Positions 3,870 through 54,058 of a DNA stretch of 56,562 nt are shown here, piece after piece. The position numbers and the translations under genes are program-made. Every line of letters starts with the position of its first letter. Position 1 is the first letter of the stretch. The notes under the pieces were generated by a model. That model was not told the DNA's origin, ran no database searches, and saw only the letters and a program-made list of their open reading frames with translations. The stretch covers positions 1 to 56,562 of the IMG/VR virus record IMGVR_UViG_3300021959_000047. One strand, 5' to 3'. The DNA comes from a virus. Its lineage: Duplodnaviria > Caudoviricetes.

Positions 3870-4989
3870 GTATATCACTTTCATTGTTACTCGTTACACT
3901 CGATTGTACTGACATGTCACGCAGTGTCAAGGCATTATTTGCACTATCAAATGTATGCTTCATGTATGGTTTCACAGATGCAACATGTGTATGCCCTGTA
4001 ACCGCCATGATTTGTGGCAATGGCACACCCTTGTCTACCATTTGTGTCACTCCAGTTCTACGTAAGTCCATAAGACGTAGCTCTTCGGATAGCTTTGCTA
4101 ACCGCATGACCTTGCGTCCAACCTTGGACAGTCTCTCCATTGCATAGGGTTGGAACCTACCATTGCGTGGTTGTGGGTGTGGTGCAACCCACTCTTGAAA
4201 ACCGAAGTCACTCTTCTGCTCTAACAACATGGCACACAGGTTGTCACTGATAGGCAGGAACACTTCCGACCTACGTTTACTCTGCTCCAGATACAGTTGC
4301 TGCTTCTTCAAGTCCAGATTATCCCAATGCAACATGCGCATATCACCAAGACGCTGACACCATTCATACGCCATGTGTACGATAAGTCCAATGTTACGAT
4401 ATTCAAAATCAGAATAAGCAACATCAAGAAATTTGACGACATCTCTGTGCTCCCATACTTTTTTCCTTTGCTTTTGTTGCTTTCGTTTTATCTTTGCAAA
4501 CGGGTTCTGTTCTGCATGCTCCATTTGTATGGCGTAGTTGTACACCCTACTGGCACACGTTGCCGCATGGTTTGCAAAACTTATACCACGTTCCACCCAT
4601 TTCTCATATGCTTGCTTTGCAACTTTAGGTGTAACATCTTTATACTTACGGCACCCAATTGTCTGGTGCACAATGGTTAAGAAGTACCTGTAATCTACTT
4701 TAGTTGAGTCACGCAACATATTGAAATCATTGGATTGATAGTAAAAGTTGATCAAGTCTGTGACCTTGCTGCTGGGTTTCAAGTTCACAACTTTAGCTTG
4801 TTCTTCACGGTACGTGTCTATGTCCTTGTTGTACTCACGTGCAATCTGTCTTGCAACTTTTGGATCACTCCCCAGTTCTTCACGGTCTACTACTCCTGCA
4901 TTCACCAGTGTCTGCGGTGGATTGAAACGATAAGAGATGTCACCCGAAGGTGACACTCGCTGTTGTACGTAACGTGGTAAGGTTCTCAA
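3862..4989 (-). CDS. int: Tyrosine recombinase/integrase
   Basis: Catalytic pattern WCQRLGD (R), QSKR (K), DLRRTG, TGH, KPY; NPF motif; TTG start. Confidence 0.88.
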   Translation of the reverse strand: MRTLPRYVQQRVSPSGDISYRFNPPQTLVNAGVVDREELGSDPKVARQIAREYNKDIDTYREEQAKVVNLKPSSKVTDLINFYYQSNDFNMLRDSTKVDYRYFLTIVHQTIGCRKYKDVTPKVAKQAYEKWVERGISFANHAATCASRVYNYAIQMEHAEQNPFAKIKRKQQKQRKKVWEHRDVVKFLDVAYSDFEYRNIGLIVHMAYEWCQRLGDMRMLHWDNLDLKKQQLYLEQSKRRSEVFLPISDNLCAMLLEQKSDFGFQEWVAPHPQPRNGRFQPYAMERLSKVGRKVMRLAKLSEELRLMDLRRTGVTQMVDKGVPLPQIMAVTGHTHVASVKPYMKHTFDSANNALTLRDMSVQSSVTSNNESDIHD

Positions 4990-6783: not shown

Positions 6784-7019
6784 TACCAATCCTTTCTTGT
6801 TTTCCAGTAGACCCAACATGTGCAGCAATGTTCTTTGCCTAAGCATAGGTCAATTAACCACACGATGTTGGGCAGTTTATCTTTTTTCCATTGCCAGTTT
6901 CTGGCACTGAATGTTTGGTTATTACTCCCACCAAGCACGACATTCGTCAATACACTTAGGGCTATCAGAACTCGGCCTAGGTATCGGCCTATCTGACCAG
7001 TCATCACACGGGTCATCAT
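6783..7019 (-). CDS. Hypothetical membrane-associated protein
   Basis: Hydrophobic VLIALSVLTNVVLGG...TFSAR segment; coupled to both neighbours. Confidence 0.65.
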   Translation of the reverse strand: MMTRVMTGQIGRYLGRVLIALSVLTNVVLGGSNNQTFSARNWQWKKDKLPNIVWLIDLCLGKEHCCTCWVYWKTRKDW

Positions 7020-7360
7020 GCGGCATCGGTTTGTCGCACGATGTTGATGTAGATAAGGTATTCACCTTCAGCATCCTTCACGTTAGAGGTCAGGATCACT
7101 TCGTCACCTGCCTCTGCATATTGCTTCAGCTTCTGTATGCTAATGCGTTTGTCACCACGTTTACCTGTACGATAGAAACGTACATTGACACGTTCACCAT
7201 CGGCATATTCACCAGTGATAGCCAACCTGCCACGTTCCACAAAGAATGGATCGTCATACGATATTTCAAAGTCGTTATCCAGAAACTGCTGCACAGTTTT
7301 GTTGGCATCTATGATGCTCTTGTCTAGCATCGTTTTCGTTAGTTTGATTTTAGCTTCCAT
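7016..7360 (-). CDS. Stand-alone domain resembling the N-terminus of MvaI/BcnI-family restriction endonucleases
   Basis: LTKTMLDKSIIDA ... FYR...RGDKRISI..LKQYAEAGD pattern, recalled rather than searched; RBS present. Confidence 0.5.
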   Translation of the reverse strand: MEAKIKLTKTMLDKSIIDANKTVQQFLDNDFEISYDDPFFVERGRLAITGEYADGERVNVRFYRTGKRGDKRISIQKLKQYAEAGDEVILTSNVKDAEGEYLIYINIVRQTDAA

Positions 7361-7369
7361 GTTTACTCC

Positions 7370-7609
7370 TTACTGTATCATAAATGGTGCTTCATGTATG
7401 AAGTCATACTGTTTGTATTCTTCCATTTCAAATTCGCCACACTCCACAAAGTCAATTTGGTCTGCGTCTGGGTGTTCGTGTGCAGCCAAACGCATGGCAA
7501 ACTCTGTGGCACTGTGCCAATCATTGATTGCGGGGTAAGTGTCATCTAATTGGACAACACTTTCCACCCCGTCTATTTCAACTACGATTTCGTAGCCCAT
7601 TATTTTCAT
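7370..7609 (-). CDS. Small acidic hypothetical protein
   Basis: 79 aa with 19 D/E versus 3 K/R; ATGA coupling. Confidence 0.7.
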   Translation of the reverse strand: MKIMGYEIVVEIDGVESVVQLDDTYPAINDWHSATEFAMRLAAHEHPDADQIDFVECGEFEMEEYKQYDFIHEAPFMIQ

Positions 7610-8013
7610 GCACGTACTCCTTCTGCATATAGGTATGGTCTGTTTCTGTGATCGCCAACGACCATGCTTGGCTGTAGTTGTAGCATAGCACGTTTGGCTG
7701 TACGTACTGGTGTCGTGTCGTACACATCAACGAATGTGTCAAACTTGTATGGGTTGTATGACACAAGTGTGTAGTCCAGATAATCTGGATGATGTTCTGG
7801 ATCAAAGTCGTCAAAGTATGTGATCTCACCACGAACAAATGCATGAACATTCTTCTTGCCCTCACGCAGTACACGTTCACGTCCTGACTTACGGACTACG
7901 AACTGTGGATCACGAATGTGTACCTTGTCAGTGTGTAAGATTACTCTGCCAGTGGAACACTGACGGACAGACCATAGGTATTTGTGTAGGTTAAAGTAAA
8001 CTTCAACTCGCAT
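7606..8013 (-). CDS. Conserved phage protein (YFNLHK ... RERVLREGKKNVHAFV family)
   Basis: Recognisable phage motif; GGAG RBS 8 nt upstream of ATG 8013. Confidence 0.75.
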   Translation of the reverse strand: MRVEVYFNLHKYLWSVRQCSTGRVILHTDKVHIRDPQFVVRKSGRERVLREGKKNVHAFVRGEITYFDDFDPEHHPDYLDYTLVSYNPYKFDTFVDVYDTTPVRTAKRAMLQLQPSMVVGDHRNRPYLYAEGVRA

Positions 8014-8128
8014 AGTCATTACTCCTTTTTTAGACACTGCGTAAAGCCACACAAGGTAGTATCAAGATGGCATGGGAGAAAAGTAAAAAATACCGTTCTT
8101 GTGTAGCTATAGGCAATGTCTGGTGGGG

Positions 8129-8236
8129 TCAACGCCCCACCTTTGCATACTTCATTGCGATACGTTTGTTATGTGTGATGATGACCACACGATCATGATC
8201 ATCATACACAACCCATTTCTTTTTACGCTGCGCCAA
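8129..8236 (-). CDS. Small protein, 35 aa (MAQRKKKWVVYDDHDRVVIITHNKRIAMKYAKVGR)
   Basis: Manual translation, TTG start; fills an operon gap; below the ORF-track cutoff. Confidence 0.5.
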   Translation of the reverse strand: MAQRKKKWVVYDDHDRVVIITHNKRIAMKYAKVGR

Positions 8237-8558
8237 TCTCACTTAGTTTTGCCTCGACTGTTTTCAACTGCATACGCAACTCACGGCGTTGACGTAGCAG
8301 TGCAGTCTTGCCAGTGCGTTTGTCCTTGATGAAGTTAAGTGTTTTCAACACTTGAACACGATACTCAACACGTTCCTGATACTCATTCAAGTCCTGTGCC
8401 ATTTGTTTCATGGATTTAGTTGCCCAATTCTGTACGATGTAATCATCCATCGCAGCATAGTTGTATGTGAAAGGTACACATCTTTTCATGTGGAATGTGT
8501 GCTCTGCATACAATTCAGGGTTGGTTGCTTTAACGATTGGACGGATTGATTTAAACAT
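8223..8558 (-). CDS. Hypothetical protein, possible HTH plus coiled coil
   Basis: SMKQMAQDLNEYQERVEYRV is HTH-like; C-terminal heptad repeat; RBS. Confidence 0.6.
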   Translation of the reverse strand: MFKSIRPIVKATNPELYAEHTFHMKRCVPFTYNYAAMDDYIVQNWATKSMKQMAQDLNEYQERVEYRVQVLKTLNFIKDKRTGKTALLRQRRELRMQLKTVEAKLSEIGAA

Positions 8559-8591
8559 AATATTACTCCTTATACAGGTTACAGGTAGGGT

Positions 8592-8741
8592 TTATTGTGC
8601 AACTTTACGTTGCAGTTGCTTGTTCAAACGGGCAATCTTGCGTTGTCGTTTAACAACATCACTCCGTTTGGATTTCTGTCCAACGTTGGACGGTTTGTTG
8701 GACTTAGAAAACTTAATAAAGTTTTGCATTTCGTAACGCAT
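8592..8741 (-). CDS. Small basic protein, 49 aa (MRYEMQNFIKFSKSNKPSNVGQ...)
   Basis: Manual translation; AGGAG RBS; contains one palindrome copy. Confidence 0.6.
   Translation of the reverse strand: MRYEMQNFIKFSKSNKPSNVGQKSKRSDVVKRQRKIARLNKQLQRKVAQ
8678..8691. repeat. Palindrome GTCCAACGTTGGAC, exact copy
   Basis: Direct reading; inside the 49-aa ORF. Confidence 0.95.
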
Positions 8742-8865
8742 TTTGTTTCTCCTTCTTACTGAGTTTGCGTTTGTTGCCCTTCTTGGGCGGTACGACCTGT
8801 GGACTTTTGCGTTGTTGAAGCAAAGCTTTTGCCACAGGGTTCACAATTCCCACAGGTTTTTTCAT
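8713..8865 (-). CDS. Small basic protein, 50 aa (MKKPVGIVNPVAKALLQQRKSPQVVPPKKG...)
   Basis: Manual translation; GAGG RBS. Confidence 0.65.
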   Translation of the reverse strand: MKKPVGIVNPVAKALLQQRKSPQVVPPKKGNKRKLSKKEKQNALRNAKLY

Positions 8866-8866
8866 A

Positions 8867-9040
8867 TTACAATTCCTCTGTCACTACACGAAATGTGTAG
8901 CCTAGTTGTTTGATTAAGTTTACATCACGTTCAGTCAACGTAGTTGTACCTGCAATCTCAGCAAGTGTTCGTGATGTGCTGCACTTAGGGTACACTCGAC
9001 GTGTACCATAAGATGTTTCAATTGATACTAACAATTCCAT
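8867..9040 (-). CDS. Small phage protein, 57 aa (MELLVSIETSYGTRRVYPKC...IKQLGY)
   Basis: Manual translation; AGGAG RBS; exactly fills the gap. Confidence 0.7.
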   Translation of the reverse strand: MELLVSIETSYGTRRVYPKCSTSRTLAEIAGTTTLTERDVNLIKQLGYTFRVVTEEL

Positions 9041-9042
9041 TG

Positions 9043-9732
9043 TTATACTCCTTGTGCTACTGTGTCAGCTTTACGTTTACTGCTACCATGTGCAGGAAAA
9101 CCAACGATTGCATCACGTTGTTTTGCACACAGTTGGCATGTAGCACAGGACACATCGTCACGAACTGTGGCAGGGCATACAACTACTTTGCGTCCCTTTG
9201 GGGTCACAGTGTTGGTTGTCTGTGCCTCTGGCAATACAGTTGCAACAGGGCCAATGCCCAAGTCATACAATGCATCAGCATGTGTGACGTTGTTGGCAGA
9301 TAGATTGACGACAAAGCCCTTGTCATTCATACGTTTGACTACACGAGCATTATGCTTGTCAGTCAACACAGGGTAGTGTGTGTAAGTGAACCCACGTTTG
9401 CCAACATTGGCATCAGCAAGCTGATCGTTAGCCTCAGCATCCAGACGGTTGCCATCACCTGCAAGATCACCTGCTTGGTTGTGTCGCCACAACTGACCAT
9501 CCTTGAAGGATGCCACAGTGCTGATGAATGTGTCCCATGCATCACCACGTTCACCACTGGTCACTTTGGCCCAATGCATAGCAAGAGGGCCACCATTTGC
9601 ATAGCAACCACCTTCGTTGGCATTGTTAAATGGACAAGCACTAGGACAAGTGTCGGCACTTGTAGTGGTTACAGGAATAGGGCCGACTTTGCGGTTACCT
9701 GATTTGTGTGTAGTGTGTACTGTGTAAGTCAT
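9043..9732 (-). CDS. Gp88-like Cys-rich protein
   Basis: SGNRKVGPIP, TCPSACP..CYA, WRHNQAGD, FTYTH, CPA..SCATCQLC..VGFPAHG; start ATG 9732 after GGAG. Confidence 0.6.
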   Translation of the reverse strand: MTYTVHTTHKSGNRKVGPIPVTTTSADTCPSACPFNNANEGGCYANGGPLAMHWAKVTSGERGDAWDTFISTVASFKDGQLWRHNQAGDLAGDGNRLDAEANDQLADANVGKRGFTYTHYPVLTDKHNARVVKRMNDKGFVVNLSANNVTHADALYDLGIGPVATVLPEAQTTNTVTPKGRKVVVCPATVRDDVSCATCQLCAKQRDAIVGFPAHGSSKRKADTVAQGV

Positions 9733-9752
9733 AACGGTTACTCCGTAAAAGT

Positions 9753-9766
9753 GTCCAACGTTGGAC
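9753..9766. repeat. Palindrome GTCCAACGTTGGAC, exact intergenic copy
   Basis: Direct reading; lies just upstream of the Gp88-like RBS. Confidence 0.95.
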
Positions 9767-9774
9767 GGTTTCAT

Positions 9775-10011
9775 TTATGAACGTTCAGCTTGTTCAAGCC
9801 AACGTAGTGCTACATCTGTAGATGATGCACCGACAGACATACAAACGTCAACAGCTTTCTGTTGAACAGCTTGTTCCTCCGCAAGTTGGTATTCCAACTC
9901 ACGTTGAAGATACTCCACATGTTCAGCAGTAGGCTGAATACCACGTGGTCTGATGCCATGTACATCCTTATACAAATCACTGAAAAAATCTAAATCCATG
10001 TTAAACTCCAT
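9775..10011 (-). CDS. Conserved small phage protein
   Basis: FSDLYKDVHGIRPRG motif followed by a coiled segment. Confidence 0.7.
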   Translation of the reverse strand: MEFNMDLDFFSDLYKDVHGIRPRGIQPTAEHVEYLQRELEYQLAEEQAVQQKAVDVCMSVGASSTDVALRWLEQAERS

Positions 10012-10028
10012 TGTTAATGTCTATACAT

Positions 10029-10069
10029 GTTATATAACACTTTCACAAAGTATTCAAGTGTTATATAAC
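10029..10069. promoter_or_regulatory. 14-bp inverted repeat overlapping a minus-strand promoter
   Basis: GTTATATAACACTT-N13-AAGTGTTATATAAC; minus strand reads TTGAAT-N17-TATAAC. Confidence 0.6.
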
Positions 10070-10079
10070 TGTAAGACTA

Positions 10080-10250
10080 TTAAAGCTGACCATCACCGAA
10101 CCAAATTTGTGCTATTGCCATCATAGTGACAGGAACAAGCACTATAAGTGCTGATGGATCAATCCAAGCATTTGCAACTGCAAATATGATGAGTGTGAGC
10201 ATCTGCAAGATGATTGCCCAAGCACAAACGATCAATGTTTTACCAAACAT
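10080..10250 (-). CDS. Small two-TM membrane protein, 56 aa
   Basis: Manual translation MFGKTLIVCAWAIILQMLTLIIFAVANAWIDPSALIVLVPVTMMAIAQIWFGDGQL; AGGAGG RBS. Confidence 0.7.
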   Translation of the reverse strand: MFGKTLIVCAWAIILQMLTLIIFAVANAWIDPSALIVLVPVTMMAIAQIWFGDGQL

Positions 10251-10252
10251 TC

Positions 10253-10867
10253 TTATGCCTCCTTCTTAGCTTGCAAAGCAAGACGTGACTGTAGATCGGC
10301 AATAATGACCTCAAGGTCAAGGCCATTTTGTGTGCACTGCTCCACAATTGTATCCACAATTGCAGTGCGAGTAAGAGGCACTGAAACCTTAGTTTCACTG
10401 TGCTCAATCCATCCAGTGTCTGACACTAGACCATCAGACTGTCCAACGTTGGACACTTCTGCTTTAGCAGGTTTAGGTGCTTCCACTGCCTCTGCTTTAG
10501 CAGCTTGCTTCATAGCACGTTGAAGTGCAGTCAATGATGTAAATCCCTTACGGGATTGTTTGATGAACTCAACACACTCAGCTTGGTTCTCATAGAACCA
10601 TAGTGCCTCACTACGACGACGACGGTCAATGTTGTGAATACCATGTGTCCGAAGGACATGTGTTGGTATTTGACCACTATCCAGAGCACTTTGTGCTTTG
10701 AGTGTGGATAGCAGCTTGCCCAAACGAGTATCAAAGCCATTGGCTTTCGTGGACTGTTTCACATTGTTCAATGTGCTCCACATCTTGCCTAGGGCTTTGC
10801 CCTCTTTCACAAGAGCATCAATTGAAGTACCTTCAACTTTAACTGCTTTGTTTGCTGATTTTGTCAT
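10253..10867 (-). CDS. First early gene, 204 aa, putative DNA-binding protein
   Basis: Long ORF with RBS; basic IDRRRRSEALWF segment; carries a palindrome copy; function inferred only. Confidence 0.7.
   Translation of the reverse strand: MTKSANKAVKVEGTSIDALVKEGKALGKMWSTLNNVKQSTKANGFDTRLGKLLSTLKAQSALDSGQIPTHVLRTHGIHNIDRRRRSEALWFYENQAECVEFIKQSRKGFTSLTALQRAMKQAAKAEAVEAPKPAKAEVSNVGQSDGLVSDTGWIEHSETKVSVPLTRTAIVDTIVEQCTQNGLDLEVIIADLQSRLALQAKKEA
10441..10454. repeat. Palindrome GTCCAACGTTGGAC, exact copy
   Basis: Direct reading; encodes SNVG in the 204-aa protein. Confidence 0.95.
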
Positions 10868-10878
10868 CGGTCTATTCC

Positions 10879-10970
10879 TTACTATCTTATGTTACATTAA
10901 GAGAGTTTATTATACTCTCACTTAACAGTGAGTGTAATAAACTATCTATGTAACTATTATAAGATAGTAA
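10879..10970. repeat. Long AT-rich imperfect inverted repeat
   Basis: Arm pairs TTACTATCTTAT/ATAAGATAGTAA, GTTACAT/ATGTAAC, AGTTTATTA/TAATAAACT, CTCACT/AGTGAG. Confidence 0.85.
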
Positions 10971-11088
10971 TATAGTCAAGCTGTTTCTTCACGTGATCCT
11001 CTGCCCGTGCCGTTTCACGTGCGACTGCAGTAATCTAAGATTACGAAGTTCGTGCGCAAAACTTGTGTGCATGTGCGAGGCAATCACC

Positions 11089-11102
11089 GTCCAATGTTGG
11101 AC
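11089..11102. repeat. Palindrome variant GTCCAATGTTGGAC (1 mismatch)
   Basis: Direct reading; non-coding. Confidence 0.85.
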
Positions 11103-11534
11103 AGTTTTGTGATCACAGTTGACATGACCCTCACCCCTTATGGGGTGGTGTATAAATGTGCATCGACTCCGTTACACACCTTGTGATCACAAAATCACTG
11201 TGGTCATACAGTCTAAAGACTGGCAACTGATTCCATAACAGTTGTCTCACCATACTAAGTCACTGTTTTTGTTACAGTTCCTCGTGTGTTGGTGAATGTG
11301 TATGCATTATGTGTGTGCACCAACGTCACATATGTGTGTATAGCATGCAATGTGTGTGTCATGAGGGGGGCAGGCAGGGGCCACACGGGGGTAGTACGTA
11401 TATGTATACACGTAAATACACAGATCAGGAAAAATGGAGTGTTAACCACATTACATATATAGTGGTTTACATAGAACAGTGTTCCATAAAACGTGGGATT
11501 ACAAGAACAATGTTCTTATTTTATCTATTAGGGG

Positions 11535-11566
11535 TTGACATGTCTCACAGAATGTGTAAAACTATA
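11535..11566 (+). promoter_or_regulatory. Rightward promoter
   Basis: TTGACA-N16-TAAAACTATA. Confidence 0.65.
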
Positions 11567-11714
11567 ATAGTTAAAACTAAGATGACACTTAAAGTGTATC
11601 ACTTAGATGTTAATATAGTTAGATATAATTATACTTAACTTATATATCACTTAAATGTAACACTTACAATGTACCGCCGTTAGGCGAGGACTTTGTATTA
11701 TATTACGAAAGTTC

Positions 11715-11746
11715 TTGACAATGAGTAAAAAATCAGTAAAACTATA
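11715..11746 (+). promoter_or_regulatory. Second rightward promoter of the same pattern
   Basis: TTGACA-N16-TAAAACTATA. Confidence 0.6.
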
Positions 11747-11936
11747 TACTGACGATGTTCTTTCTGAGTTTTATAATCACGTACTCAATGGAACTATAGA
11801 TAGATTGCATATCCCTCATAGTGATGTATTCTATGTACGAGAAGCCGTACAGAACCACTATGGGAGGAAGTTTACGTTAGAACATGTAGAGTGGGCTATG
11901 CGTATGGAAGGATGGACTGACAGTGGCGATACCTGA
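11721..11936 (+). CDS. Hypothetical protein
   Basis: First ORF of the plus arm; start uncertain. Confidence 0.6.
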   Translation: MSKKSVKLYTDDVLSEFYNHVLNGTIDRLHIPHSDVFYVREAVQNHYGRKFTLEHVEWAMRMEGWTDSGDT

Positions 11937-53206: not shown

Positions 53207-54058
53207 TTAATCCTCTATGTATGCCACCGTCTTGGGGTCTTTTGCTTTCGATACCCGTGATGGTTCTTCAACCATGTTGGGCCAACACTCGTATCTGTAA
53301 TCACAGAAACGACAGTTATCATTTAGTACCTTGTTCCCTGTGGGTTTGCCACGGAAGAACTCTGGCACTGGGCTGAAGCAACGTTTGAACTCATTCTTGT
53401 TTACTGCTTCAACCGTGTCCTTGATTTTATCAAGTTCTTTATTAAGGTCAAGACCATCGGCTGGTACATATTTAAACTCACCATTACCTTTGTTCACGAC
53501 CCACCATCCACCTACACGTTTGCCAGATGCTTTGGCATAACCTGCAAGCTGTCCTACGTATCCGAACCCGTCACCCTTGGCTAGTGTAGCAAAGGAATCA
53601 AACTTGTTCTGGTACGACCAAGGGGATGCCGACTTCACGTCATCAACGGCACCGTCTATGACAAGATCATAAGAGCCAGAAACCCTAGTATCATTAGTAT
53701 CTCCCACTTCAAGGCTAACTTTATCAGTGTCTTCAAACTCCACGTTAGCAGCTTTAAGCAGCCCTTTAAAAACAGCCTCAACAATATCTCCTATCATCAT
53801 GTTCATTACAAATGTCGTCGGCTTTGGTAATGCACTCTCAGGTTTATTCTTTTGAAACCAGAGTTGGCAAGTAGGACGCCCAATGTTGGACATCCTTAGT
53901 GTGAAAGCATCACGAGACTTGCCACTACCGAACTGACGAAGTACTGCATCAGCAACCTCTGTGCCAATATCCTTAGCCTGTTCATAAGTGAACGTGCTCT
54001 TTCCATTGGCAGCATCAGTCATAAACTGGTGCAGCTTTAGTTCAGCAGGATGGTTCAT
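53207..54058 (-). CDS. Cas4-like PD-(D/E)XK exonuclease
   Basis: RMSNIGRPTC, GSYD, DDVKS, Y..QL..Y, C.FC.Y..EC Fe-S-type cysteines. Confidence 0.8.
   Translation of the reverse strand: MNHPAELKLHQFMTDAANGKSTFTYEQAKDIGTEVADAVLRQFGSGKSRDAFTLRMSNIGRPTCQLWFQKNKPESALPKPTTFVMNMMIGDIVEAVFKGLLKAANVEFEDTDKVSLEVGDTNDTRVSGSYDLVIDGAVDDVKSASPWSYQNKFDSFATLAKGDGFGYVGQLAGYAKASGKRVGGWWVVNKGNGEFKYVPADGLDLNKELDKIKDTVEAVNKNEFKRCFSPVPEFFRGKPTGNKVLNDNCRFCDYRYECWPNMVEEPSRVSKAKDPKTVAYIED

Follow-up and report, generated by a model that had tools for sequence, protein, structure and literature searches.

Dyad operators of about 20 bp are found in the initially transcribed region of the lac and gal systems (O1, O2, and O3, and OE and OI, respectively). 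Auxiliary copies are upstream and intragenic, and regulation involves roadblock and looping. In phage lambda, binding sites for the O protein are in the part of the O gene encoding the inter-domain linker, and both site and N-terminal domain co-diverge among phages. Some phage operators are RNA. For instance, in lambda N-boxB, the MS2 coat operator, and T4 RegA/RegB targets, the bases recognised, and conserved, are those of the loop and bulge. For the locus described here, the closest known system in functional terms, by analogy, is KorB with its dispersed OB operators. A 2004 study, by Khare, is said to place the contacts that set KorB specificity outside the classical helix-turn-helix. According to two reports (PMC5577506, PMC13768133), KorB has 12 palindromic OB operators on RK2, and comprises a DNA-binding domain, a disordered linker, and a dimerisation domain. 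Here, we describe palindromes, hereafter called dyads, in IMG/VR virus record IMGVR_UViG_3300021959_000047. The record, analysed as a single stretch of 56,562 bases (the window), is complete (CheckV completeness 100%) and represents the whole genome of an HMO-2011-type podophage. The dyads are conserved, are under nucleotide-level selection, switch class in concert, and correlate in class with residues of p204, the 204-aa product of the first early gene. Our preferred description of the element is a new operator-regulator pair, working in the way of KorB or LacI-type systems, built on an uncharacterised protein fold, and with frequent concerted specificity switches.

Phages of the HMO-2011 type rank among the most abundant viruses of the sea. 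The main texts of two papers on the group (PMC9038755, PMC6918029; supplements aside) do not use the words palindrome, inverted repeat, promoter, or operator. Among HMO-2011 papers found by library search, no title or abstract concerned such a palindromic element. Our findings supply a conserved cis-element, in a phage group with no published account of gene regulation, and a candidate reader, a member of a ~200-aa protein family that is as yet uncharacterised.

A palindrome is clustered in the early region

By blastn, the early region of the window is closest to Roseobacter phage CRP-345 (75% identity across 57% of a 4-kb query). Phage CRP-1 matches at 78.6% identity over 38%, and Puniceispirillum phage HMO-2011 is a remoter relative. 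On the minus strand, genes extend leftward from position 10867; rightward genes begin at ~11715. The divergent intergenic region is between 10868 and 11714. We scanned the window with the 14-mer GTCCAACGTTGGAC and found three exact copies, two copies with one mismatch, and one with two mismatches (at 53878). The first five are listed here, with the genes concerned (ORF, open reading frame; 5'UTR, 5' untranslated region).

11089-11102, no strand: upstream dyad GTCCAATGTTGGAC, one mismatch, in the divergent intergenic region, ~220 nt before the p204 start and ~150 nt upstream of the p204 promoter-like site.
10253-10867, minus strand: p204, the 204-aa first early gene and candidate reader; in an AlphaFold2 model, residues 16-129 form a helical N-domain, 130-166 a disordered linker, and 167-203 two C-terminal helices.
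10441-10454, no strand: linker dyad, exact, within the coding region for the disordered linker of p204, peptide SNVG.
9753-9766, no strand: DUF7227 5'UTR dyad, exact, directly 3' of the stop codon of a 78-aa gene; the ATG at 9732 follows after 20 nt.
9043-9732, minus strand: DUF7227 gene, identified by a Pfam match, with a dyad in its 5'UTR.
8678-8691, no strand: p49 dyad, exact, inside a 49-aa ORF, peptide PSNVGQ; the same place is kept in relatives.
8592-8741, minus strand: p49, the basic 49-aa ORF with the dyad inside, absent from the ORF list used for the initial annotation.
4116-4129, no strand: integrase look-alike GTCCAACCTTGGAC, one mismatch, peptide LSKVGR; conserved, and remains A-type in a G-class genome (see below).

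These positions agree with an initial annotation, made from the sequence alone, which had noted the exact and one-mismatch copies. Their number is far above chance; six matches compare with 0.13 expected (standard deviation 0.34), and none of 100 shuffles reached six. For the 10-bp core, with up to one mismatch, there were 12 matches and 1.31 expected. Smaller details of the annotation also hold. The 20-mer TGTCCAACGTTGGACGGTTT is common to 8677 and 9752, a TTGGAC half-site is present at 8697, and the scan found no exact copy in the plus-strand arm. A core-only variant, TGCCAACATTGGCA, is present at 9399 as described. However, this is probably a chance occurrence, since two relatives, L020 and L021, do not keep it (the peptide is ANTG, not ANVG).

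The initial annotation had also placed two copies inside unrelated ORFs. This is correct for the p204 linker, and a second coding copy is in p49, but the copy at 9753 is not coding. Briefly, the Pfam match to DUF7227 (E 9.5e-88) begins at residue 18 of a long ORF of 243 aa, and relatives are without the ATG of that ORF. Hence, the DUF7227 gene starts at ATG 9732, and the copy at 9753 lies in the 5'UTR.

Dyads are found in all relatives surveyed

The initial annotation had proposed that HMO-2011-type relatives be scanned for the motif, and clustered dyads are indeed found family-wide. A search with p204 gave 34 IMG/VR loci, and a profile search gave 153 relatives; the dyad survey used the best 80 of these. 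We define A-type dyads as GTCCA..TGGAC and G-type as GTCCG..CGGAC. One or other type was present in all 34 loci and in all of the best 80 of 153. Among loci examined, every relative with a p204 homologue has between 2 and 9 GTCC-N6(7)-GGAC dyads in the early arm. The window sequence GTCCAACGTTGGAC, with up to two mismatches, is in 29 of the 34 loci and in both CRP-1 and CRP-345. In the remaining five loci (L018, L020, L022, L024, and L037), and in L009, it is replaced by GTCCGAYRTCGGAC. HMO-2011 has five copies of GTCCGACAGCGGAC, one of which is flipped. In the distant loci L124 and L125, where p204 is ~30% identical, there are five copies each of GTCCA-N4-TGGAC. Similarly, L126 has three copies of GTCCG-ACTGT-CGGAC, with a 5-nt centre, and L127 has three of GTCC(T/C)..(G/A)GGAC. 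A search for the loci of three distant p204 family members (P0042, P0033, and P0069) found none. Across five whole records, the dyads are concentrated where the early arm begins; a reversed control pattern gave no hits.

Dyad placement was counted in 68 loci with distinct p204 sequences; these loci are interrelated, so dyad counts are not independent events. There are 343 dyads, none more than 700 nt upstream of p204. The upstream intergenic region contains 61, and copies orthologous to that at 11089 of the window are present in relatives. A further 64 are in the p204 linker. The largest group, of 127, is in 5'UTRs having a Shine-Dalgarno sequence and start codon and, for 118 of these, the motif ends 19-22 nt from the start codon. 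Inside ORFs there are 56, in the frame G-TCC and mostly in the p49 homologue. The other 35 are elsewhere downstream.

The dyad is under nucleotide-level selection

Across sites, the arms GTCC and GGAC are without variation. Positions 5 and 10 are either A and T or G and C, and the centre varies (ACGT, ATGT, ACAT, AGGT, ATAT, or ACAG, and ACTGT in L126). In the flanks, A at -3 is complementary to T at +3, and both are conserved in 78-97% of non-ORF sites. Hence, the element is a dyad of ~20 bp with the consensus A-N-Y-GTCC-R-NNNN-Y-GGAC-R-N-T. The arms are invariant, and the centre variable, even at ~30% p204 identity, a pattern that fits readout of half-sites rather than recognition of an RNA stem by structure only. 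The initial annotation had suggested sites for a dimeric protein. The elements do behave as two-fold symmetric and sequence-specific sites, with invariant symmetric arms and concerted changes; the dimer is a step that we infer. Most probably, the phage-encoded reader would be a p204 dimer contacting two GTCC(A/G) half-sites.

The coding copy in p204 is constrained beyond its peptide. Thus, Ser139 is encoded by TCC in 64 of 65 sequences and Gly142 by GGA in 62 of 65. Val141 is encoded by GTT in 57 and by GTC in 6, these 6 all being of the G class. Elsewhere in p204, conserved columns for Ser, Leu, Arg, Val, and Gly use 3-6 codons, with an entropy of typically 1.5-2.3 bits. The linker peptide follows site class, and is SNVG in the A class and SDVG or SDIG in the G class. 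Synonymous changes that freely break the palindrome, which the initial annotation named as an observation that would speak against it, are not seen; the codons are frozen.

Dyads within a genome switch class together

Copies within a genome change between A-type and G-type together. Among 69 loci with distinct p204, 60 are purely A-type, 8 are purely G-type, and one is mixed (five A-type dyads and one G-type). The mixed arrangement was seen only in the L115/L116 type of locus. We built a p204 tree from the alignment with columns 106-165 removed; on it, there are at least seven changes of site class.

The relatives L020 (G class) and L021 (A class) amount to a natural experiment. Over 8.5 kb, the contigs match in 7924 of 8496 columns (93.3% identity), yet all five sites are class-switched, with each orthologous pair differing in positions 5 and 10 as well as the centre. 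For the 5'UTR copies (n = 2), 40-nt flanks on each side are nearly identical despite the class difference. Logically, a stem required only for pairing would not force one pair in all copies. Hence, a sequence-specific factor reads the sites. Judged from these sequences, the specificity of that reader is different in the L020 and L021 phages.

The sites could, in principle, be read by a factor of the host, such as a transcription factor or a nuclease/modification system. Site classes would then be adaptations to different hosts. Consistent with this, class is all-or-none per genome, and the centre has CG with TG and CA variants. However, class follows residues of the phage protein p204 (see below), and changes repeatedly among close relatives, as noted above. 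Furthermore, the same GTCC/GGAC arms occur in phages of both SAR116 and Roseobacter RCA. A 22-mer cassette, searched in place of the bare 14-mer, had no hits in 185,579 species genomes. We consider a host reader highly improbable.

The dyads could also be boundary or microhomology cassettes for shuffling early genes, comparable to the promoter-early stem-loops (PeSL) of T4, with no dedicated reader. Early gene content is mosaic, and accessory genes each carry a dyad and a Shine-Dalgarno sequence, as such a cassette would. Yet the dyad symmetry, the frozen codons of p204 and p49, and the concerted point-mutational switch within identical flanks would all be left unexplained. Of the explanations discussed here, we find this the least credible, though recombination between cassettes may be a secondary effect.

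The initial annotation had included the integrase copy in the set. The integrase palindrome, GTCCAAGGTTGGAC (LSKVGR), is conserved in CRP-1, CRP-345, L010, G001, and G002, but does not switch class with the others. In G001, six early dyads are all G-type; the integrase copy (G001:23196-23209), in an integrase 90% identical to that of the window, is still A-type. Since it is A-type in a G-class genome, the integrase copy probably lies outside the dyad set. Note that this class comparison is for G001, the one G-class genome that extends to the integrase. The integrase palindrome and ~15 nt upstream are identical in several relatives that are otherwise 75-79% identical.

A contig from an RNA library (run X20), with a loose end at window position 8704, has a G-type dyad (GTCCGACATCGGAC) at the p49 position. 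Hence, A- and G-class relatives seem to co-occur in marine samples. Note that the data for run X20 are contigs alone, and that some DNA may have been carried over.

The product of the first early gene is the leading candidate reader

The initial annotation favoured the 204-aa product of the first gene as the partner of the palindromes. Our comparisons support this choice, since p204 accompanies dyads throughout, and since its residues 113, 117, and 121 are the top correlates of class. We compared the early proteins of L020 and L021. The p50 proteins, 50 aa in length, are 100% identical, the DUF7227 proteins are 1 residue apart, and the p49 proteins differ solely at the dyad. The 77/89-aa proteins are 63% identical, and the 111-aa gene is not in L020. 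In the folded N-domain of p204, differences are at residues 79, 117, 120, and 121. We rejected p50 as the specificity determinant, as its sequence is the same in both phages. The 111-aa and 77/89-aa proteins were rejected as readers because they are not universal among dyad-bearing loci.

The initial annotation had asked whether palindrome and p204 sequences covary, and class does track residues 113, 117, and 121. Thus, S113, K117, and A121 each change with class in four of five independent pairs, and never in the opposite sense. They are the top three of 587 column/residue tests after D140, which is encoded by the site. The residues are spaced i, i+4, and i+8 on helix 112-129, and so occupy one face. 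The wider p204 family has 92 clusters in a library of 1.84 billion proteins, and we examined 70 representatives. Proteins with SNVG have T113 in 14 of 18 cases (the rest being S, P, A, or E). Proteins with SD[VIL]G have S113 in 8 of 10, and T113 in none. In the distant locus L126, R113 accompanies G-type arms.

An AlphaFold2 model of p204, made from a 70-sequence alignment, has a mean predicted local distance difference test score of 85.6. The model predicts an all-helical N-domain of ~125 residues (helices 16-30, 45-59, 69-75, 82-93, 95-105, and 112-129). It places the dyad in the coding region of the disordered linker, ahead of the two C-terminal helices. A homodimer prediction scored 0.33, below the mark of 0.42, and says nothing either way. 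The match between DUF1465 and p204 (E 0.0013) is below the gathering score and involves 2-3 members only. In the ESM Atlas, p204 is in unnamed viral clusters only.

We lean towards the dyads being an operator set that p204 would read on double-stranded DNA, in a KorB- or LacI-like manner. In such a scheme, p204 would be made first, from its own promoter. It would then occupy dyads located between early promoters, or stop codons, and the downstream ribosome-binding sites. It would also bind the dyads upstream of its own promoter and within its own gene. Bound p204 may tune or shut off expression of the early arm, its own gene included, by roadblock and/or looping; this sign of regulation is one that we infer.

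Several observations weigh against this proposal. First, there are just five independent pairs in which class changes, and so a sign test cannot reach 0.05. Second, residues 113-121 are encoded 55-85 nt from the in-gene dyad. Hence, a recombination patch could mimic covariation. Third, there are exceptions; in L021/L064, S113 accompanies A-type sites, and in P0006 it is paired with SNVG. Fourth, the gene for the reader could be outside the ~9 kb compared. Fifth, a comparison of p204 with Pfam, PHROGs, and PDB sequences gave nothing above the cut-off, and no known DNA-binding family. Similarly, a Foldseek search of the PDB, with both p204 models, gave no match at E <= 0.001. Finally, three properties of the sites do not favour a DNA-bound dimer. 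In 5'UTRs, spacing to the start codon is rigid (118 of 127) while the distance to a -10-like hexamer varies between 7 and 50 nt; the element is thus linked to where translation starts, and not to promoters. The 5'UTR centre is strand-biased (ATGT in 109 and ACAT in 10). In addition, the 5-nt centre of L126 is easily accommodated by a hairpin, and less so by a rigid dimer.

The dyads may be read as DNA rather than RNA

The properties just listed bring into play an RNA operator. In early mRNAs, the dyad would fold as a stem of 5 bp and a loop of 4-5 nt, immediately before the Shine-Dalgarno sequence. The stem-loop would be read by a protein of the phage (whether p204 or not), which would control translation, processing, or stability of each early cistron. 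Constant spacing from the motif to the ATG, and sense-strand bias to ATGT, both fit. So do copies directly after stop codons with no promoter, HMO-2011 copies that abut the Shine-Dalgarno sequence, and a centre of either 4 or 5 nt. The A-U to G-C change preserves pairing, and a hairpin is predicted in every fold.

However, the hairpins are weak (z scores of -0.3 to -2.6), and none of the 6 single-arm variants is a G-U intermediate. Covariation in the stem involves a single pair (A-T to G-C) and is genome-wide; the other four pairs never vary. A stem recognised by structure only would drift, by compensatory change, over such large divergence. The variable part is the loop, which differs in sequence and length. 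The dyads do not show the pattern of cis-regulatory RNA, in which compensatory changes in the stem accompany a conserved loop. Location is also informative. The upstream copy is ~150 nt upstream of the only good p204 promoter match (itself a consensus match), and the p204 and p49 copies are not near ribosome-binding sites. Rfam gave no match at gathering score over the whole window, which counts against an RNA operator. With E up to 1, across positions 8400-11750, Rfam hits were at chance level and none was on a dyad. We regard an RNA operator as rather unlikely, though still as a serious alternative. Three further points are on the side of DNA; the flanks are symmetric, a 5'UTR dyad of HMO-2011 occurs flipped, and some ORF copies are far from any ribosome-binding site. 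Readout from DNA seems to us somewhat more likely than not.

Like phage RNA hairpin operators, the dyads could form a short stem-loop beside early ribosome-binding sites, but differ in having a variable loop and a stem of fixed sequence. The T4 PeSL elements are also a conserved promoter and stem-loop module, flanking small shuffled early genes. We know of no reported co-switch of PeSL elements with a protein and, unlike these elements, the dyads have coding copies under nucleotide-level selection.

Site classes might define specificity groups

If p204 reads the dyads on DNA, the A and G classes, with T113 versus S113 and a basic residue 117 in p204, might define orthogonal specificity, or 'immunity', groups. 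We offer this tentatively, as a possibility at well under even odds. Diversifying selection would repeatedly flip the pair of site and p204 (at least 5-7 times, among close relatives). Such flips would keep co-infecting or resident relatives from cross-regulating early genes. The likeness is to heteroimmunity, in that operator variants and p204 residues change together, with the caveat of linkage to the in-gene site. Evidence relating to lysogeny consists of the encoded integrase, and of the 22-mer cassette being without match in the species genomes searched. If true, a change of one or two residues in a new DNA-binding fold would reprogram readout between A-T and G-C. This would be a natural and minimal recognition-code switch in a highly abundant group of ocean phages. 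A few oligonucleotides and one small protein would suffice to test protein-DNA co-evolution, early-gene control, and possible immunity groups.

Comparison with KorB, ParB, LacI, and lambda O

KorB resembles the present system in several ways. A single type of palindromic operator is present in many dispersed copies on a mobile genome, at varying distances from promoters, and the dyads are conserved among relatives in both sequence and position. Furthermore, p204 shares the layout in which a disordered linker joins a helical domain to a small C-terminal one. An exhaustive structural search found one chain spanning the whole N-domain, and this was the KorB DNA-binding domain on its operator (1r71_A; Z 5.2-5.3, 87 residues aligned, root-mean-square deviation 3.3, with both models). 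Note that the score does not rise above noise, and that unrelated helical chains do equally well. In the same search, 1vz0 had a Z of 4.4. We treat the modelled likeness in fold as a lead only. Differences are that p204 is without a ParB_N/CTPase domain, that the genome is without a ParA partner, that the C-terminal domain of p204 is two helices and not a beta-barrel, and that there is no sequence homology. Hence, the resemblance falls short of placing p204 in the KorB family.

The initial annotation had proposed parS-like loading sites that organise or protect the first-injected DNA. More broadly, the dyads could be parS- or KorB-like loading sites, or origin iterons, at which a nucleoprotein complex organises, protects, partitions, or replicates early-entering DNA. 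As in ParB-parS systems, the palindromes are clustered, with some intragenic. One site is in the linker-coding region of the reader itself, like the iterons of lambda O. The minimum of cumulative GC skew in the window is at 8-10 kb, and there is the weak whole-domain likeness in fold to the KorB and Spo0J DNA-binding domains. However, modelled p204 is too small to contain a CTPase domain. The sites occur singly, at intervals of 250-1100 bp, and are linked to 5'UTRs, where most copies in relatives are found at a fixed distance from the start; there is no tandem array of iterons. In addition, the phage has an integrase rather than plasmid-maintenance genes. A six-frame search of the complete 56.6-kb genome found no ParB_N domain (PF02195), with control matches in 11 of 14 genomes. 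A search for ParA-type ATPases, with PF13614 (AAA_31) as the sole ParA model, found none in the genome; controls matched in 14 of 14. The early-arm annotations of CRP-1 and CRP-345 include no ParA-type gene; they list hypothetical proteins, integrase, primase, helicase, and thymidylate synthase. We consider loading sites or iterons improbable. The annotation had also argued, from intragenic positions, against classical operators. We do not accept this reasoning; lac O2 and gal OI are intragenic.

Separately, CACGTG is present at 10990-10995 and GTTTCACGTG at 11012-11021. Both resemble half of the bacterial parS consensus; the genome is without ParB.

Returning to p204 as a candidate DNA-binding regulator, LacI/GalR systems are similar in having ~20-bp dyads in the initially transcribed region, with auxiliary copies both upstream and intragenic. 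They differ in that the protein family is another one, and in that the phage dyads are more numerous, often intercistronic, and at a fixed distance from start codons. The lambda O system is similar in that the p204 dyad is in the linker-coding region of its own gene, and in that site and N-domain co-diverge. Here, the difference is that lambda has four tandem iterons by an AT-rich region; p204 has a single in-gene copy, with the rest in 5'UTRs.

Promoter context and neighbouring elements

Two promoter-like features are of note.

10909-10938, minus strand: sigma-70-like promoter match for p204, ATTACA-18-TATAAT, 10/12, a consensus match only.
10039-10079, minus strand: early promoter module, TTGAAT-17-TATAAC, with two GTTATATAAC palindromes, before the 78-aa gene.

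The p204 promoter-like site is within an inverted repeat at 10900-10947 (arms 10900-10917 and 10930-10947, 89% complementary). On a miRNA-precursor model, 10879-10970 scores as a long hairpin on both strands, far below the gathering score. In the early promoter module, one GTTATATAAC copy abuts the -35 box and the other overlaps the -10 box. These copies could be a second type of operator, or UP and -10 elements. The counterpart of the pair in HMO-2011 is ATATATACTT..AAGTATATAT.

In relatives, this module, with TTGAAT-17-TATAAC and both GTTATATAAC copies, is conserved as AGTTATATAACAC-TTGA(A/T)-N-GTGAAAGTGTTATATAACA, 18-31 nt upstream of many dyads. A -10-like hexamer is within 75 nt upstream of 88 of the 218 downstream dyads. 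Hence, many dyads are in the initially transcribed region, as is lac O1, and others are between cistrons.

Adjacent to the upstream dyad, at 11105-11194, a 13-nt inverted repeat (TTTTGTGATCACA and TGTGATCACAAAA) is 100% complementary, with the arms 64 nt apart. It encloses a perfect hairpin, CACCCCTTATGGGGTG, at 11132-11147. The sequence TTGACA is at 11119-11124 and TATAAA is 26 nt after; the hairpin occupies the spacer. Together with a TGTGATCACA element, the hairpin recurs upstream of the dyad in relatives.

Four further interpretations were rejected. As a -35 box, sigma-54 promoter, or MotA-box-like site, the dyad lacks a -10 element at a constant downstream distance. It is not an intrinsic terminator; plus-strand copies were flagged by the scan, but stems are 5-7 bp and coding copies are without a T-run. 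A leader mini-ORF, beginning at the ATG of the ATGT centre, has neither frame nor stop conserved between lineages. Finally, RNA-library contigs contain joints at 9773/10012, 9773/10439, and 10458/8707, with short sides of 20-36 nt. We did not take these as evidence of recombination, as they fit relatives of other gene content, or an aligner hopping between motif copies.

Small genes of the early region

The DUF7227 protein is cysteine-rich (CPSACPF..C..C..C) and aligns with the C-terminal half of a 529-position PHROG. The gene is always preceded by a dyad. The p50 protein (8713-8865, minus strand) is very basic and the most conserved of the small early proteins (64-98% identity in relatives and 50% in HMO-2011). 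No family match was found for p50 in Pfam or PHROGs. Its sequence pattern is reminiscent of ArfA-type ribosome-rescue peptides. Among close relatives (loci L004-L037 compared with window positions 7000-10250), the small early genes are strongly mosaic. The 78-aa, 57-aa, 111-aa, and 77/89-aa genes are gained or lost between relatives, and an accessory early gene usually arrives with its own cassette of dyad and Shine-Dalgarno sequence.

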